Shown: positions 8,939 through 14,314 of the stretch, one piece after another
How positions within the stretch are numbered: position 1 is the stretch's first letter
Layout: every line of letters starts with the position of its first letter
Source: Escherichia phage dhaeg
Reading direction: 5' to 3' (one strand)
Sequence record: MN850609.1
Length of the DNA stretch: 64,000 nucleotides
Notes under the pieces: model-generated
Told to the model about the DNA's origin: nothing
The model's database searches: none
What the model saw: the letters and a program-made list of their open reading frames with translations, nothing else
Translations under genes and position numbers: made by a program

Positions 8939-9712
8939 TTAATCATCTAAAAAAGCATCATCAAATGCTGTAGGAGGAGCATCTTCTCCTCTACCATTAA
9001 TCACCACATAAGGATGTACGAATTCCGCTGCTTCAGCATTAATCTCATTAACCTCTTCATATTGGATATCAGAGATATCAGCCAACCCGTCGATATTTTT
9101 AACAGGCATTAAATCAAGCTCACTGAATTCAGGAATATTAATACCTTCATTTCTCTGTAATTCAGGACGAAGTTCTTCACCATTATAAATGAACTTGGTA
9201 GCAGTAATACGACGCTGGACGTTTGTACCAACTTGATAGAACGGGTCGTAAGGTTGAACCCAATTAATTTCAAATAGACTGTTGTCCATAGGGAAATAAA
9301 TCAAGTCACCTGAAACAGGTTCAGTACCATTGCATTGATGTTTAAAAAGGTTAGGGTTAATTGTGATTGTTACTTCATCATTAACCATCATACCGAACTT
9401 ACTGAAATAAGTATTGTCACCGGAATAACCTTCAAAGGAATCTAAATAACCTGCAAACTTCCAGGCTTTAGTAAATTTGTTCTGAAGGTCTTCGCCAAAT
9501 AGCTGGTCTGGTTTAACATATTCACGTGGTATATAATAAAGCTCGATACCACGCATTTGAATAGACTCAGCAACTAAAGCATCAGCCAATGTTTGGGTGT
9601 TCTCATGGCGATAAAAGTTGACGAATGGGTTCATTATTTCAGTTTCGTTCGTGTTAGCATAGCCAGTATTATCTTCTAGCTTAGCGAATAAACTCGAATC
9701 GAAAGTAGCCAT
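8939..9712 (-). CDS. 14: neck protein gp14
   Basis: 257 aa; MAT.D..LFAKLE..TGY.QTNETEI.NP... matches recalled T4 gp14. Confidence 0.93.
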
Positions 9713-9714
9713 AA

Positions 9715-10647
9715 TTATCCAATTAAAATAGGTGTTGGTGGGTCGAGCAAATCTAATTCTTCACGAAGACGTTCTTTTTCTAAACGAGCCTCTTCAATCA
9801 ATCGAATACCATCTACAGTGGTTCCACCTGCAAGTTGCATGCCTTGGTGTTTGGCTAGAATATTGCCATTGACTTCTTTAACCAATGCAGTGGCATAATC
9901 TTTAACCCAACGGTTATTATATGCACCGTCCTGAAGGCCGAGGTCCTCGCCTACGCGCATACCGGAAATACGACGAGATGGGTTATCCCAAATAGCACCT
10001 GGGCTCCATTCGTTTTCACCACAGGCCGAAGCATAACCATAGCCTACGGTATTTCCAACCATAGAATCAACCCCATTAAAAGAACGAGTATAAACTTCGA
10101 TTACAATAAAATCGCCTTTAACAAAGTTACCCATTACCTTCAATTGTTCAGTGGCATCGTTATACCAATAATCTGGTAGTGGAACCAAAAGGTCCTGCAT
10201 CATAGAACGATATTGCATTAGCTGCGTAAAATAACCAAGGTCGGCGCCGAAGGCATTAGGTCCGAAACTGTTACATGAAGACCCAAGCCCACCATTAATA
10301 CCAGCTAAGCCTAATACAAAATCTGTAAACCAGGGATAAGTTGCTTGCCCATCCATAGATGTTAAAGAACCAACGTTAGTTCTCAAAATTTGTGTTACTG
10401 CAAATATATTACGTCCTTTAAGGTCGAATACACCATTACGGAATTTTTCTTCATCGTCGTGGCCGATATAAAAAGCCTGATATCCTTTGTTATACCCGTT
10501 ATAATGGTATTCACCGTAGAGCTCTAGAGCACGCTGGATGCAATCATATACTTGGTCTGTAGTTACTTCAATATTTGTAATCGGTGCACCCAGGCGGCGC
10601 AGAATAGCGTCCTTGAGTTGCTTAGGGTTGAATGATTCGCTTGCCAT
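9715..10647 (-). CDS. 13: neck protein gp13
   Basis: 310 aa (T4 309); synteny wac-13-14. Confidence 0.9.
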
Positions 10648-10668
10648 ATTTTATTCCTCTAATAACCG

Positions 10669-10676
10669 TATTTATA
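10669..10676 (-). promoter_or_regulatory. late promoter TATAAATA upstream of gene 13
   Basis: TATTTATA on plus strand, about 22 nt upstream of the gene 13 ATG. Confidence 0.6.
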
Positions 10677-10680
10677 GCAA

Positions 10681-10701
10681 AAAAGGGCCGAAGCCCTTTT
10701 T
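10681..10701 (-). terminator. rho-independent terminator after wac (symmetrical A/T flanks)
   Basis: AAAAGGGCC-GAA-GCCCTTTTT. Confidence 0.7.
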
Positions 10702-10702
10702 A

Positions 10703-12772
10703 TTATGGTGCTGAGTTTAAAGTCACAAAATCAGACAATAATACCCATGCGTTATCAACCAGAACGTACGGGAGTCCGTCTGCAGCAGGAGCCACCGGCG
10801 GACGTTTAGCTAATTCTGTTTCTAAGGCTGTAATTTTACCTTCGGCGGTGGTTAAACGGGTTCCTAAATCGGCAACTTTATCCGATTCAACCTTAACTGC
10901 GGCTAAATCGGACTGAAGGGTAGTTATTTTACCTTCAGCTGTTGTTACACGAGTTGTTAAAGGAGCTATTTTAGCGGTATCTAATTTAATATCAGTAATT
11001 TCGCCTTCATTAGCTGCTACTCGCCCGGTTAAAGTAACGATATCACCTTTATTCTTGGTTATATCGGCTTTAATAGGGGTTAATTGTGATTCTATAGAAC
11101 TCACATCTAAAGCCAAAGCCGTAACATCAGAATCGGTTGTATCCGTCTTGGTTTCCAATGCGGTTATTTTGCCATTAATAGTTACGTCACTTTCTTCCAA
11201 AGCAGTAATACGATTATCTTGCTCAGTGTCTTTGGATTTTAACAAAACAACATCGGCTTTAATTTCTCCTACTGAAGTGTTTAAAGCACCAGTTCTGGTA
11301 TCAAGAGAAGAAATGGAGGCGTCATTAGTATCGACTCTAGCCGTTAAGGCTGATACCTTACCATCAGTAACCAATAAAGAAGCTTTTACTGCATCGATTT
11401 CTGTAGTACCATCAAGGATTTCCGTCCATGCCGAATCCTTACGTCCATACAATTTACCATCAGTAGGTGCTTCACCCAATTTAGTAGGCATCTGAGCTTC
11501 AAGGCCTTTAACCGAGTTTATTAATCCTCGTTCTTCTACGGTACTACCGTTAGGGTTGGTTCCTTCAATTTGGTTGGTGATTTTAAGAATAGAACCTTTG
11601 ATGCCTGTTTGGTTATTACCAATTTCGGCCTGCAAATCCTGAATAGTAGAGGCTGAAGTATTGCCTTGAGTTGTAAGGTCGTTCAAACGTTTATTGATTG
11701 TTCCTGCTGCCGGACTCACATCCGCACCGATTTTACGGTCTATATCAGAAACCTGGAAACGAAGCCCTTCAGATGAACTAGCACCAACTATGGTTTTTAA
11801 CTCATTAACATCAGTACGCAAGCCGCCCAATCTGCCGTTAATAGACGTAGGGGTATCGGCAGTACCGATGGCAGTTTCTACTGCAGTAACCCTAGGGACC
11901 AATCCATTATTAACAGTGTTTTCTAAAGTAGACGTTTTAGTTTCTAATGTAGTTACTCTGGTATCAATAGAGCCCTTATTAAAGCCTATACTGGTTTTGA
12001 TAGAATCTATCGATTCATTAAAGTTTACGGCTGCCGTTTCGAGAGCTGAAATTCTAGTATAAGCAGGTTGTTTACCTACCGTATCAATATGTGGACCAAG
12101 TTCTTCACGAATTTCGTTAAGTTTAAGCCCAAGTTGACCTACATCAGAATCTTCATAATTCTTTTCAAGGGTATCTATACGTTGCGAATGGTCGACAATA
12201 GCACTGGTATTATCCATAATACGACGTTTCATACCGGTGGCTTCAGAAGTTTCACCGGGAGGAAGCGGCTGGCTGTTTATATCTTGGTTTGCATAATGGC
12301 CAATTTCTGATTTAAGAAGATTTATATTTTCTCTAACAGTGAGATACGGGCCATCTAAAGACGGGTCATAATAACCGACATCTTCTTCTAAAAAATTAAA
12401 ATTAACTGTTAAGTCGCCTAAGTCCTTTTTAGTCTCGGAAGCCTTTTCATCTACAGCCAATATATCGACACGGTTCTTTTCAATTTGCTGAATAACAGCC
12501 GTATCAGTAGAAATATCAAGGGCTTCATTAATCAAATTAACGTTATCCACAAGCTCGTTAATTTTGTCTTTAGAAGCTATGCTGTTTTCTTCTAATCTAA
12601 CTACGTTAGTTTGTACTCCTAAAGCAGGGGCATTCAAATTACCGTCGTGACCGTATTTAGTCGTGGCTCCTTCAATACATTCGCCATTGCGTATCCAACG
12701 GATACGCTCTTGGGATGCATCAGGTACACCATCGACAAACGGAAGTTCTTTAATACTCAGTTTGTCAATCAT
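10703..12772 (-). CDS. wac: fibritin (whisker antigen control), extended form with two foldon-like modules
   Basis: 689 aa (T4 487); N-terminus ...LPFVDG.P....RI.WI.NGE..., mid-part ...EIGNN..GIKG......GTNPNGSTVEERGL.NS... as recalled for T4; C-terminus DGLPYVLVDNAWVLLSDF resembles the foldon. Confidence 0.92.
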   Translation of the reverse strand: MIDKLSIKELPFVDGVPDASQERIRWIRNGECIEGATTKYGHDGNLNAPALGVQTNVVRLEENSIASKDKINELVDNVNLINEALDISTDTAVIQQIEKNRVDILAVDEKASETKKDLGDLTVNFNFLEEDVGYYDPSLDGPYLTVRENINLLKSEIGHYANQDINSQPLPPGETSEATGMKRRIMDNTSAIVDHSQRIDTLEKNYEDSDVGQLGLKLNEIREELGPHIDTVGKQPAYTRISALETAAVNFNESIDSIKTSIGFNKGSIDTRVTTLETKTSTLENTVNNGLVPRVTAVETAIGTADTPTSINGRLGGLRTDVNELKTIVGASSSEGLRFQVSDIDRKIGADVSPAAGTINKRLNDLTTQGNTSASTIQDLQAEIGNNQTGIKGSILKITNQIEGTNPNGSTVEERGLINSVKGLEAQMPTKLGEAPTDGKLYGRKDSAWTEILDGTTEIDAVKASLLVTDGKVSALTARVDTNDASISSLDTRTGALNTSVGEIKADVVLLKSKDTEQDNRITALEESDVTINGKITALETKTDTTDSDVTALALDVSSIESQLTPIKADITKNKGDIVTLTGRVAANEGEITDIKLDTAKIAPLTTRVTTAEGKITTLQSDLAAVKVESDKVADLGTRLTTAEGKITALETELAKRPPVAPAADGLPYVLVDNAWVLLSDFVTLNSAP

Positions 12773-12781
12773 TTTATTTCC

Positions 12782-14314
12782 TTAAGCAACTTTAATAATG
12801 AATAGGATGGACATAGTCCAAGGACGGTTTTCGTTACCAATTAACCCTTCACTGTTTAGGGTAGTTCTTGAATCTCGTGAACCGGAACCGTCAATTTCGT
12901 ATCCTTCGTTTGTAAAGTAAGAACGGTTATCCCAGTCTAATCCTTTACGAGTACCGGCAAAGTTGGAACGAACAGTGTTACCAAAAGCACCTGCGTTATC
13001 ATGTTCACCAAAACCACCTGCATGTTTATGGAACCGAAGTTGTTGAGCTTGTACTGTACCGTGTCCATATGAACCACAACCTACACCTAATTTTGGTTTG
13101 CCTTTGGCGTCGTTACCTTTGGCGTCTCTAATTCTAACGTTGGCGTCCCATTCTTTTAATCCACCGTCATTAGTTTGGTTTGCACCTCTAGGATATAATC
13201 CACGGAAGTCAGGACGAGCACCAGTTGAGCCCCATTTACTACCAACTACGTTTCGGAATCCTTGCTCACCAGAGTTACCACCATCACAAACGGCCCAACC
13301 TGCAGGGATATTGTTAATTTGGCCTCCCCACATAACGATAGTACCAATAGGAACAGAATCTTTTAATTGGTCGACAGTAACAACATCACGCCCATTACGA
13401 CGTAAAGTACCATTAACGTTTAAAGTACCATTAATAGTACCACCGGTGGTAGAAATAACGTTAGCATTATATGCCAATGCTGTACTTCCATCGCCAGAAC
13501 CCACGGTAGTTGTGGTTTTAAGAAGGCCTATTCTACCGGTATTACCCGTTCTTGACAAAAGGGTTTGAGGCGTAATAGCTTTATTTGCATCAATTCCGGC
13601 CGAAACTTCAGCTCCAGTGGCTAATTGAACCAGTCCACGTCGAGAAGTATTAGAAGTTAAAGAAATAAGCCCTGATGGAGAAATTGCGACGCCATTAGTC
13701 AATGTGCCATTTGCCACTTCGGCATTTGTCGCGATTCTAACAATACCTTCAGTAGTTTGTGTTGCACTTGCATAAGTTGGTAAGGCCGATGTAGCGGCTC
13801 CAATTGCCTGTGCGGTTTTAAGAGGCGTCATAGCCGTAGTATCATCTGTACCCGCTAAAGCCGCTGGCAAGGTTGAAATCTTGAGTACACCTGTAGTGTT
13901 CTCTGTGGCTAAACGATTGGTGAATGTATAATCTATAGTAGCCTTCAAAGATGATGCTACGATTGCAGCCTGGGTCTCTGTCCCAGCGATGGCCTCATCA
14001 TTAGTAGCATAACGTGTGATACCTACATAGGTTTCAGTTGCTTGAGTAGGAATGTCCAAGCGGCCTTTTAAAGTAGCCGGGGTCACAGCAGAGAAAGTAT
14101 CAGTGCCATCAATAACTTCTTGTTGGGTGGCTAATCTAATAATACCCTGTTCTGTTTCGGATGCGGCCGGAATATTACCTGTAACACCTATAGCAGAAAT
14201 GGATGATAAGGCGTCTTGGACGTTGGTAATACTAGGGTCAAAATTCGACCCGGTAGGGTCGAATGTTTTAAATTCCGATTTATCACTTATATGTTTTAGT
14301 GTATTTGTAGACAT
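12782..14314 (-). CDS. 12: short tail fibre gp12
   Basis: 510 aa; ...HKHAGGFGE.D..GAFGNT.RSNF.GTRKGLDWDNRSYFTN.GYEID... matches recalled T4 gp12. Confidence 0.95.
   Translation of the reverse strand: MSTNTLKHISDKSEFKTFDPTGSNFDPSITNVQDALSSISAIGVTGNIPAASETEQGIIRLATQQEVIDGTDTFSAVTPATLKGRLDIPTQATETYVGITRYATNDEAIAGTETQAAIVASSLKATIDYTFTNRLATENTTGVLKISTLPAALAGTDDTTAMTPLKTAQAIGAATSALPTYASATQTTEGIVRIATNAEVANGTLTNGVAISPSGLISLTSNTSRRGLVQLATGAEVSAGIDANKAITPQTLLSRTGNTGRIGLLKTTTTVGSGDGSTALAYNANVISTTGGTINGTLNVNGTLRRNGRDVVTVDQLKDSVPIGTIVMWGGQINNIPAGWAVCDGGNSGEQGFRNVVGSKWGSTGARPDFRGLYPRGANQTNDGGLKEWDANVRIRDAKGNDAKGKPKLGVGCGSYGHGTVQAQQLRFHKHAGGFGEHDNAGAFGNTVRSNFAGTRKGLDWDNRSYFTNEGYEIDGSGSRDSRTTLNSEGLIGNENRPWTMSILFIIKVA

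Follow-up and report, generated by a model that had tools for sequence, protein, structure and literature searches.

The wac gene of Escherichia phage dhaeg very probably encodes a JS98-type fibritin (gpwac), i.e., a trimeric collar/whisker fibre of Dhakavirus in which two foldon-like modules are separated by a long coiled-coil spacer. This judgement refers to the whole explanation given below, including the JS98-type identity, the architecture and the proposed mechanism. The “JS98-type fibritin” was defined as one with two T4-like foldon motifs whose coiled-coil spacer varies in length (Letarov & Krisch 2013, PMC3797505); the passage of that paper concerning this type cites Latypov 2007. The two-foldon fibritin architecture is already known from these reports of 2007 and 2013. 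Both features are found in the dhaeg protein: two T4-like foldon motifs occur in one chain (18.3 and 10.6 bits), and the spacer has a coiled-coil periodicity (z=7.7) and, in close relatives, lengths between 32 and about 316 aa. Throughout the text, the window is the whole analysed stretch of 64,000 nt (record MN850609.1).

The gene occupies positions 10703..12772 on the minus strand (689 aa and the stop codon), as follows from the list of open reading frames. Its product matches PHROG 1056 “fibritin neck whisker” (E 6.9e-196, aa 1-604 covered) as well as T4 fibritin (PDB 2bsg), and is identical to QHR70643.1, the fibritin of Escherichia phage dhaeg. The window has a nucleotide identity of 99.4-99.5% to dhabil and CLB_P2, both Dhakavirus phages. 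The gene is flanked on the same strand by gp12 (12782-14314) and gp13 (9715-10647), where the names are taken from the annotations of relatives, so that its neighbours are the genes of the short tail fibre (gene 12) and of the neck protein (gene 13), as expected for a fibritin; the order gp12-wac-gp13-gp14 in the window is likewise annotated around wac in CLB_P2, IME08, dhabil and SP18. In CLB_P2 this gene is annotated as “hypothetical protein” and in ESCO10 as “phospholipase”, and the start codon annotated for IME08 wac is 69 nt too far upstream.

A second in-frame TAA (10700-10702) directly follows the stop codon of wac. The hairpin AAAAAGGGC-UUCG-GCCCUUUUU followed by U's is read from the sequence right after the stop (10679..10701, minus strand); RNA folding gives -12 kcal/mol (z -2.4), and the hairpin is likely an intrinsic terminator, although a consensus terminator scan did not flag it. 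Upstream of gene 13 (10669..10676, minus strand), a pattern search found the late-promoter consensus of the T4 type, TATAAATA; considering what is known of T4 late promoters, it may serve as a late promoter. The list of open reading frames contains no additional frame between wac and gene 13. Two antisense frames overlapping wac (10632-10916 and 11055-11495, both on the plus strand) were considered and rejected as genes; they are mechanical frames opposite a well-supported gene.

The claim of the earlier note that the protein follows T4 fibritin up to about aa 430 holds: residues 5-432 of 2bsg align to residues 6-430 of the dhaeg protein with E 5.6e-74. The N-terminal 50 or so residues (12623..12772, minus strand), which are covered by this alignment from T4 residue 5 onwards, form the conserved domain responsible for neck attachment in fibritins (PMC3797505); its invariant columns in 41 fibritins include P17, Q21, R23, W26, T38, G41, G44 and N47. 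The shaft (aa 48-431; 11480..12631, minus strand) is collinear with that of T4. In the single-chain AF2 model it consists of helices broken by loops, and such loops are known to interrupt fibritin shafts (PMC3797505). Taken together, the AF2 helices, the heptad periodicity and the homology to the solved T4 shaft suggest a segmented parallel triple coiled coil, of which a single chain was modelled.

The shaft includes the helix of aa 359-385 (11618..11698, minus strand), which, according to the AF2 model and the T4 alignment, is equivalent to the T4 whisker helix alpha11 (fibritin 361-386). The offset relative to T4 is -2, so that T4 Q380 and Q383 correspond to Q378 and Q381, both invariant in the 41 fibritins. 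A preprint describes the T4 docking site at about 7 A resolution and reports that the kneecap of the long tail fibre, gp35, is docked by alpha11, a helix upstream of the foldon (bioRxiv 10.64898/2026.03.06.709160). We presume, by analogy, that the helix of aa 359-385 would dock the kneecap in dhaeg too. Since this helix is conserved and lies upstream of both foldons, the C-terminal extension need not change the geometry of long-tail-fibre retraction.

The foldons were scored with an HMM trained on the terminal foldons of 18 single-foldon fibritins, the background being 2000 shuffles of the protein. The internal module GEAPTDGKLYGRKDSAWTEIL (aa 433-453; 11414..11476, minus strand), located exactly where the earlier note had put it, scored 18.3 bits, the terminal module PVAPAADGLPYVLVDNAWVLLSDF (aa 659-682; 10727..10798, minus strand) scored 10.6 bits, and the best of the shuffles 5.4 bits. 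At the level of sequence comparison, both modules are foldon-like with scores far above chance. In a six-frame translation of the entire 64 kb, the motif DG..Y.{5,7}W has only two occurrences, and wac contains both.

The terminal module follows the pattern AP..DG..YV..D..WVLLSDF, after which 7 residues remain to the chain end. It keeps the WVLLSxF tail of the foldon with the following exceptions in the rest of the signature: the equivalent of T4 Glu461 is Val/Ala, that of Arg471 is Leu671, i.e., the Glu-Arg pair of T4 is missing, and one residue is inserted before DG. Single-chain AF2 predicts a hairpin (669-672/675-678) and then a short helix (679-681); the block-mean pLDDT is about 54-70 over the blocks holding the two hairpins of the protein, and the pTM of the single chain is 0.22. 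The proposal that the chain ends in a second foldon was correct, while the coordinates given for it, 10730-10798, correspond to aa 659-681 and are a few codons off; the segment PAADGLPYVLVDNAWVLLSDF is aa 662-682, or nt 10727-10789.

It had also been proposed that the internal module sits where the T4 foldon ends the protein. This is not so, as T4 has an extra coiled-coil segment (aa 433-456) before its foldon. It is the terminal and not the internal cassette that is collinear with the T4 C-terminus: the former aligns with the last 64 aa of T4 fibritin at 34% identity (BLASTP, E 4e-10), and the orthology of the internal module to the T4 foldon, which would need a gap of 26 aa, was rejected. 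In position, the internal module corresponds to the foldon at the chain end of fibritins of 455-459 aa, a foldon that starts at aa 431-437. Among 67 homologues, a foldon-like module is found at aa 430-437 in most fibritins outside the T4 type and the class of 477-482 aa; the latter has its single foldon at aa 455-461. The two cassettes of dhaeg show a weak paralogy, with 32% identity over 38 aa and a pairwise E of 4e-4. The suggested origin of the extension by duplication of a C-terminal cassette is plausible on these alignments, as is one by deletion of such a cassette; the JS98 and T4 types were described as interconvertible by one deletion or duplication (Letarov & Krisch 2013, PMC3797505).

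The spacer between the foldons (aa 454-657; 10802..11413, minus strand) is 204 aa long, in agreement with the coiled-coil extension of about 205 aa reported initially. AF2 predicts spacer helices 459-592 and 599-654 with a block-mean pLDDT of up to 90. The power of ILVMF at period 3.5 has z=7.7, and the a/d occupancy is 4.39 of 6 vs 2.78+-0.14 in shuffles (z=11.7). With Ala counted as hydrophobic the signal is weak (z 1.1-1.9), because Ala in the spacer is mostly at surface positions. Pfam coiled-coil families matched the spacer below threshold. The trimeric coiled coil of the P22-like tail needle gp26 (4lin) matched aa 498-628 with E 1.6e-7; kinship was rejected, considering that the match involves the heptad sequence only and is perhaps compositional, and that neither a terminal domain nor a genomic context is common to the two.

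The near-duplicate pair described in the spacer is indeed present: TRVTTAEGKITTLQSDLAAVK (aa 607-627) and TRLTTAEGKITALETELAKR (aa 638-657) are identical at 13 of 20 positions and span nt 10802-10954, so that the end originally given, 10957, is 3 nt too far. It is not a duplication private to this phage: the parsing of repeat units across relatives shows the pair to be the minimal allele of a variable-copy array with a unit of 31 aa (93 nt). Dhaeg has the single full unit TRVTTAEGKITTLQSDLAAVKVESDKVADLG (aa 607-637; 10862..10954, minus strand), followed by the truncated last unit TRLTTAEGKITALETELAKR (10802..10861, minus strand), which BLASTP shows to be the final coiled-coil segment, homologous to the last segment of T4. 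Relatives have 2-5 full units, and the array of dhaeg is the smallest among the long forms. Dhabil differs from dhaeg by an exact in-frame indel of 93 nt, and the remaining 370 aligned nt contain 2 mismatches; the junction of the extra 93 nt of dhabil is at about nt 10883 (aa 630/631). Tandem Repeats Finder detected the 93-nt arrays in IME08 and reported no repeat in wac of the window, because only about 1.6 units are present there and the copies have diverged; the array is visible in relatives only. Phages with near-identical shafts carry wac alleles of 515, 689, 720, 772 and 799 aa; the alleles of 515 aa retain both foldons, and the deletion junctions differ between JS98-C3 and Bp7.

We propose the following mechanism. 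As in T4, trimerisation would be nucleated by the terminal foldon, which would also fix the coiled-coil register from the C-terminus, and the internal module would be a second beta-hairpin trimer node with three chains passing through it. The JS98 fibritin trimerises unaided, without a dedicated chaperone, according to a biochemical report (PMC3797505). With the docking helix upstream of both foldons and spacers of 32 to about 316 aa, the rod would most likely be a distal appendage of about 28 nm, and its length would not be tightly constrained, a reading drawn solely from the length polymorphism and from an assumed transfer of the T4 docking site. Changes in rod length could come from unequal recombination among 93-nt units as well as from larger deletions that join similar heptad segments.

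A stronger proposal is that the internal module is one of widespread “in-line foldon” nodes, not a relic, and that the rod is a length-tunable element with its own function in sensing or retraction. We advance it tentatively and consider it rather doubtful. At a threshold of E<=1e-3, a profile of the internal module matched 7,202 cluster representatives, a single protein containing as many as 16 matched stretches; this abundance of in-line modules also speaks for the main explanation. If the proposal is true, a trimeric fibre passes through a beta-hairpin clamp, and the JS98-type whisker is the simplest natural example with two nodes.

It is also tempting to regard the distal rod and the second foldon as an adaptively tuned functional module with the repeat copy number under selection, which might make contact with the capsid, the surface of the host or the distal half-fibre, or might adjust the retraction threshold. 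Such tuning is suggested by the sequence of the terminal foldon, which hardly varies across Dhakavirus and Gaprivervirus in spite of different spacers, by spacer cassettes common to lineages with diverged N-terminal shafts, which point to exchange, and by the collar fibritins of T4, which additionally clamp gp37 (bioRxiv 10.64898/2026.03.06.709160). However, spacers of 32 to about 316 aa on near-identical shafts argue against a fixed reach, and we consider the tuned module unlikely.

One more explanation of the internal segment is that it is an ordinary loop interrupting the coiled coil, its likeness to a foldon being coincidental or vestigial. Fibritin shafts do contain many loops, both in the AF2 model and according to PMC3797505; the blocks with the internal hairpin reach a block-mean pLDDT of only about 54-67; and the fibritins P0035 and P0046 have long extensions without an internal foldon, so an internal node is not required for a long distal coiled coil. 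Against this explanation stands, besides the HMM score on a model trained on single foldons, the complete foldon signature in aa 433-453: E434, A435, P436, D438, G439, Y442, R444 and W449, corresponding to T4 Glu461, Ala462, Pro463, Asp465, Gly466, Tyr469, Arg471 and Trp476. The counterparts of both members of the Glu461-Arg471 pair, E434 and R444, are thus present. The roles of the signature residues in the T4 foldon are said to have been described by Tao et al. in 1997 and Guthe et al. in 2004.

The module is moreover conserved: A435, P436, D438, Y442, R444 and W449 are each conserved in at least 90% of 41 fibritins that are 37-96% identical overall, and all JS98-type sequences surveyed retain it. 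Pfam Fibritin_C matches aa 373-452 with E 2.9e-22. In the PDB, a profile built from 22 internal-type modules picks up 1RFO, the T4 foldon, with E 1.9e-9, and through this profile the signature residues align to 1RFO; the 60 best matches of this search are all the T4 foldon or engineered fusions, with no natural in-line foldon among them. The single-chain AF2 model, despite its low pLDDT here, predicts that the internal module forms a foldon-type beta-hairpin (strands 442-445 and 448-451, with the turn D446-S447 at the Asp-Gly equivalent) in the foldon register, YGRK/AWTE vs YVRK/EWVL in T4. In view of these data an ordinary loop is very improbable, and we keep to the foldon-like module.

Finally, it is scarcely credible that the length of 689 aa or the whole extension is an artefact of a collapsed 93-nt repeat or of a fusion of, or read-through between, two genes: exactly one unit, at a repeat boundary, separates the window from the 99.4%-identical dhabil, which is a signature of collapse, but the reading frame is uninterrupted up to the double stop, which is followed by the hairpin and the late promoter, the identical 689-aa protein is deposited for dhaeg (possibly in the very record of the window), an equally long extension is present in PSD2002 at 84% identity, more than 50 phage records have a two-foldon C-terminus, and both foldons persist in the 515-aa alleles.

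We believe that the finding is real but ordinary, considering that the architecture has been published and the exact protein is in GenBank as fibritin. It nonetheless has a practical side. Short-read assemblies of Dhakavirus can collapse at the 93-nt array, so that a draft assembly should not be used to deduce whisker length. The natural alleles of 515, 689 and 799 aa are a ready series for relating whisker length to long-tail-fibre retraction. Natural foldons that tolerate continuation of the chain, or that do without the Glu-Arg pair (YVLVDNAWVLLS), could be alternative trimerisation tags.

A search of the literature on “foldon-like” together with bacteriophage, and on PF07921/Fibritin_C, returned nothing on in-line or tandem foldons beyond PMC3797505. 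Relative to the other JS98-type proteins (wac of JS98, JS98-C3, JS10, IME08 and dhabil) there is no difference in kind: the N-terminal domain, the shaft and the gene position are the same, and the array of dhaeg is smaller than in the other long forms. T4 fibritin (gpwac; 2bsg, 1aa0, 1avy; foldon 1rfo) is collinear with dhaeg over aa 6-430 and matches it in the C-terminus and the docking helix; however, it has a single foldon (aa 457-483) and no internal module, and between the residues matching T4 aa 432 and 433, dhaeg has about 225 aa more, i.e., the internal foldon and the spacer. The T4 foldon also stands at the chain end with the hydrophobic tail LLSTFL, whereas the internal module of dhaeg has neither: 236 aa follow it, and its Trp is followed by TEILDG, not VLLSTF.

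The short fibritins of 455-459 aa (Pectobacterium phage PM2 P0033; also P0028 and P0030-32) have their foldon at the position of the internal module of dhaeg, where the TNPNG..VEERG loop and a single short helix immediately precede it; their chain ends there with a tail of the WVLLS(T/D)F type, while that of dhaeg goes on. The chain also continues past a first foldon-like unit at aa 435 in Escherichia phage EcS1 (P0037, six units) and Serratia phage CHI14 (P0042, five units). In these two proteins the units follow every 26-32 aa through Pro-rich linkers and without a coiled-coil rod, whereas in dhaeg the two foldons are separated by such a rod.

The whole feature lies in a single ORF, wac (fibritin, 689 aa; 10703..12772, minus strand), flanked by a gp12-like short-tail-fibre gene (12782-14314) and, on the other side, by the neck genes gp13 (9715-10647) and gp14 (8939-9712). 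This order (gp12-like, wac, gp13, gp14) is that of T4, and the relatives are annotated in the same way. The window DNA is 99.4-99.5% identical to that of the Dhakavirus phages CLB_P2 and dhabil, and the identical protein is in the public record (QHR70643.1, “fibritin [Escherichia phage dhaeg]”). PHROG 1056 (fibritin neck whisker) matches the protein at E 6.9e-196; residues 5-432 of T4 fibritin (PDB 2bsg) align to residues 6-430 (E 5.6e-74), which bears out the earlier note that T4 fibritin is followed to about aa 430. The coordinates proposed there are correct or off by a few codons.

Wac ends in two stop codons; a UUCG-tetraloop hairpin with a U-run (-12 kcal/mol) comes next, and then the late-promoter consensus TATAAATA, which precedes the gene 13 start codon (ATG) by 22 nt. 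Hairpin and consensus together span 10669-10701 (minus strand). The hairpin is absent from the output of the consensus terminator scan; it was found by sequence reading and RNA folding. Considering the double stop, the hairpin and the gene 13 late-promoter consensus, the long C-terminus is therefore part of an intact gene.

Antisense ORFs of 94-146 aa within wac (10632-10916, 11055-11495 and 11694-12062, all plus strand) are mechanical and have no supporting evidence. In public records wac is labelled “hypothetical protein” in CLB_P2 (locus L002, 1501-3819) and “phospholipase” in ESCO10 (OM386655.1, 75173-77335); the IME08 CDS (locus L003, 1432-3900) starts 69 nt upstream, overlapping gene 12 and giving 822 aa instead of 799. 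In Shigella phage SP18 (locus L005, 3628-4263) genes 13 and 14 are separated by a segC-like homing endonuclease gene; the window is free of it, and gene 14 directly follows gene 13.

The two foldon-like modules, internal GEAPTDGKLYGRKDSAWTEIL (aa 433-453, nt 11414-11476, minus strand) and terminal PAADGLPYVLVDNAWVLLSDF (aa 662-682, nt 10727-10789, minus strand), are both well above chance. A 21-position HMM trained only on single-foldon fibritins scores them at 18.3 and 10.6 bits, respectively, against a maximum of 5.4 bits in 2000 shuffles, and the loose motif DG..Y.{5,7}W has only these two sites when all 64 kb of the window are translated in six frames. Pfam Fibritin_C covers aa 373-452 (E 2.9e-22); a profile of 22 internal-type modules recovers the T4 foldon 1RFO (E 1.9e-9). 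A single-chain AlphaFold2 model (41-sequence alignment; mean pLDDT 73, pTM 0.22) predicts a hairpin in the internal module (442-445/448-451) and in the terminal one (669-672/675-678, then a short helix 679-681), both with only moderate confidence. Read from the sequence, the modules differ in which T4 foldon features they retain: the internal one has equivalents of T4 Glu461 and Arg471 (E434 and R444), and the terminal one has the WVLLSxF tail, with Leu671 in place of Arg471 and a one-residue insertion. The roles of T4 residues such as Glu461 and Arg471 were reportedly worked out by Tao et al. in 1997 and Guthe et al. in 2004. In the 41-sequence alignment, conservation reaches 90% or more at A435, P436, D438, Y442, R444 and W449.

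The spacer is a repeat-bearing coiled coil, as had been proposed. In the AlphaFold2 model it forms a pair of long helices, at 459-592 and 599-654, where block means of pLDDT rise to 90; heptad periodicity, counting ILVMF only, is strong (z 7.7 at period 3.5), and a/d occupancy is 4.39/6 versus 2.78+-0.14 in shuffles. The near-duplicate pair of the earlier note is real (aa 607-627 and 638-657, nt 10802-10954, minus strand); its description needs refinement, as the pair is the minimal state of an array of a 31-aa/93-nt unit (consensus TRLGTAEGKITTLETGLAAVKVESDKVAGIN), variable in copy number among relatives. The window has one full and a truncated terminal unit. Full units number two in dhabil and three in JS98, and IME08 and JS10 reach five with a half unit counted in; the CLB_P2 array is also longer than the window's, with internal rearrangements. 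Tandem Repeats Finder detected 93-nt arrays in IME08 and reported none in the window. Relative to dhabil, the window shows a single in-frame indel of exactly 93 nt, placed on a unit boundary (aa 630, nt ~10883), with only 2 mismatches in the remaining 370 aligned nt. JS98-C3/AnYang (514-515 aa) and Bp7 (529 aa) show larger deletions that keep both foldons, merely 32-46 aa apart; these arose independently, because their junctions differ. The two-foldon C-terminus is found in at least 54 phage records (coverage at least 80%), and also in Gaprivervirus (SP18 wac, 525 aa).

Foldon-like modules commonly sit within the chain and in several copies. Escherichia phage EcS1 (homologue P0037, aa 435-605) has six tandem units and Serratia phage CHI14 (P0042, aa 435-579) five, 26-32 aa apart with Pro-rich linkers, in place of the coiled-coil spacer; P0039 is of the same C-terminal type, which is unnamed in the accessible text of Letarov & Krisch 2013 (PMC3797505). 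The fibritins P0044 (Yersinia phage MHG19), P0045, P0063 and P0066 have a foldon-like module at aa 428-436 and, after it, a C-terminal tail of another 128-135 aa that Pfam does not match. Of 1.84 billion representatives searched with the internal-module profile, 7,202 reach E<=1e-3 and 152 reach E<=1e-30 (P0068-P0216 among them; e.g., P0069 aa 40-460, P0073, P0090). Some chains have as many as 16 matched stretches, and in some of the proteins phage tail-tip domains, collagen repeats or N-termini like T4 gp9/10 occur as well. At the sequence level, therefore, chains commonly run on past a foldon-like unit. The best 60 PDB matches are all the T4 foldon or engineered fusions, with no natural solved structure of a chain continuing after a foldon among them. 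The engineered spike glycoprotein constructs 8wtj and 8wro have two tandem T4 foldons (residues ~1209-1230 and ~1242-1262), so an artificial chain with a foldon and then more sequence is buildable.

In T4, the C-terminal foldon starts trimerisation and sets the coiled-coil register, according to PMC3797505, and the T4 literature has the retracted long tail fibres held by the whisker. In a 2026 preprint (bioRxiv 10.64898/2026.03.06.709160) the contact is placed at whisker helix alpha11 (fibritin 361-386; N377, Q380, N381, Q383), docked in the CBM-like domain of kneecap gp35. The counterpart of this helix here is the AlphaFold2 helix aa 359-385 (offset -2 versus T4); Q378 and Q381 show no variation across 41 fibritins. 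We presume that the docking site precedes both foldons in the chain, at a distance from the neck equal to T4's, so that the distal rod, perhaps ~28 nm long (190 helical residues x ~0.15 nm), would project past the knee. Spacer length ranges from 32 to ~316 aa among phages whose shafts are nearly identical, which argues against the rod having to contact any fixed partner. On this view the terminal foldon would nucleate folding of the rod, with the internal module as a second trimer node. Weighing against this are the moderate confidence of the two hairpins and the long extensions of homologues P0035 and P0046, which have no internal node. Longer whiskers or host sensing remain putative consequences of the extension. 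The residual value of the observation is in annotation fixes for wac in related phages, in the variable-copy 93-nt repeat as an assembly hazard, and in the length alleles as a natural series for whisker-function tests.

The two-foldon architecture is already known: Letarov & Krisch 2013 (PMC3797505) define the JS98-type fibritin, whose two T4-like foldon motifs flank a coiled-coil spacer of varying length, regard the JS98 and T4 types as interconvertible through one deletion or duplication, and state that small foldon motifs alone suffice for trimerisation of JS98 fibritin, as of T4 fibritin (citing Latypov et al. 2007, on wac of JS98-C3). The observation thus correctly rediscovers a published layout. 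The architecture described in the earlier note holds, as does a duplication/deletion origin; the positional equivalence with T4 requires correction. T4 fibritin has one extra coiled-coil segment (aa 433-456) ahead of its foldon, and its last 64 residues are collinear with the terminal cassette, made up of the final repeat segment and the foldon (34% identity, E 4e-10), and not with the internal module, whose alignment as the counterpart of the T4 foldon needs a 26-residue gap. Between the internal and terminal cassettes identity is 32% over 38 aa (pairwise E 4e-4), a weak paralogy that fits an old duplication. Among the 67 homologues surveyed, most fibritins outside the T4 type and the 477-482-aa class (single foldon at aa 455-461) have a foldon-like module that starts at aa 430-437; in the 455-459-aa class the chain ends with it. 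The internal module thus occupies a foldon position that is widely conserved, the distal rod and second foldon being the addition. Put the other way, T4 fibritin is the form without the internal module, as in the deletion scenario already published.
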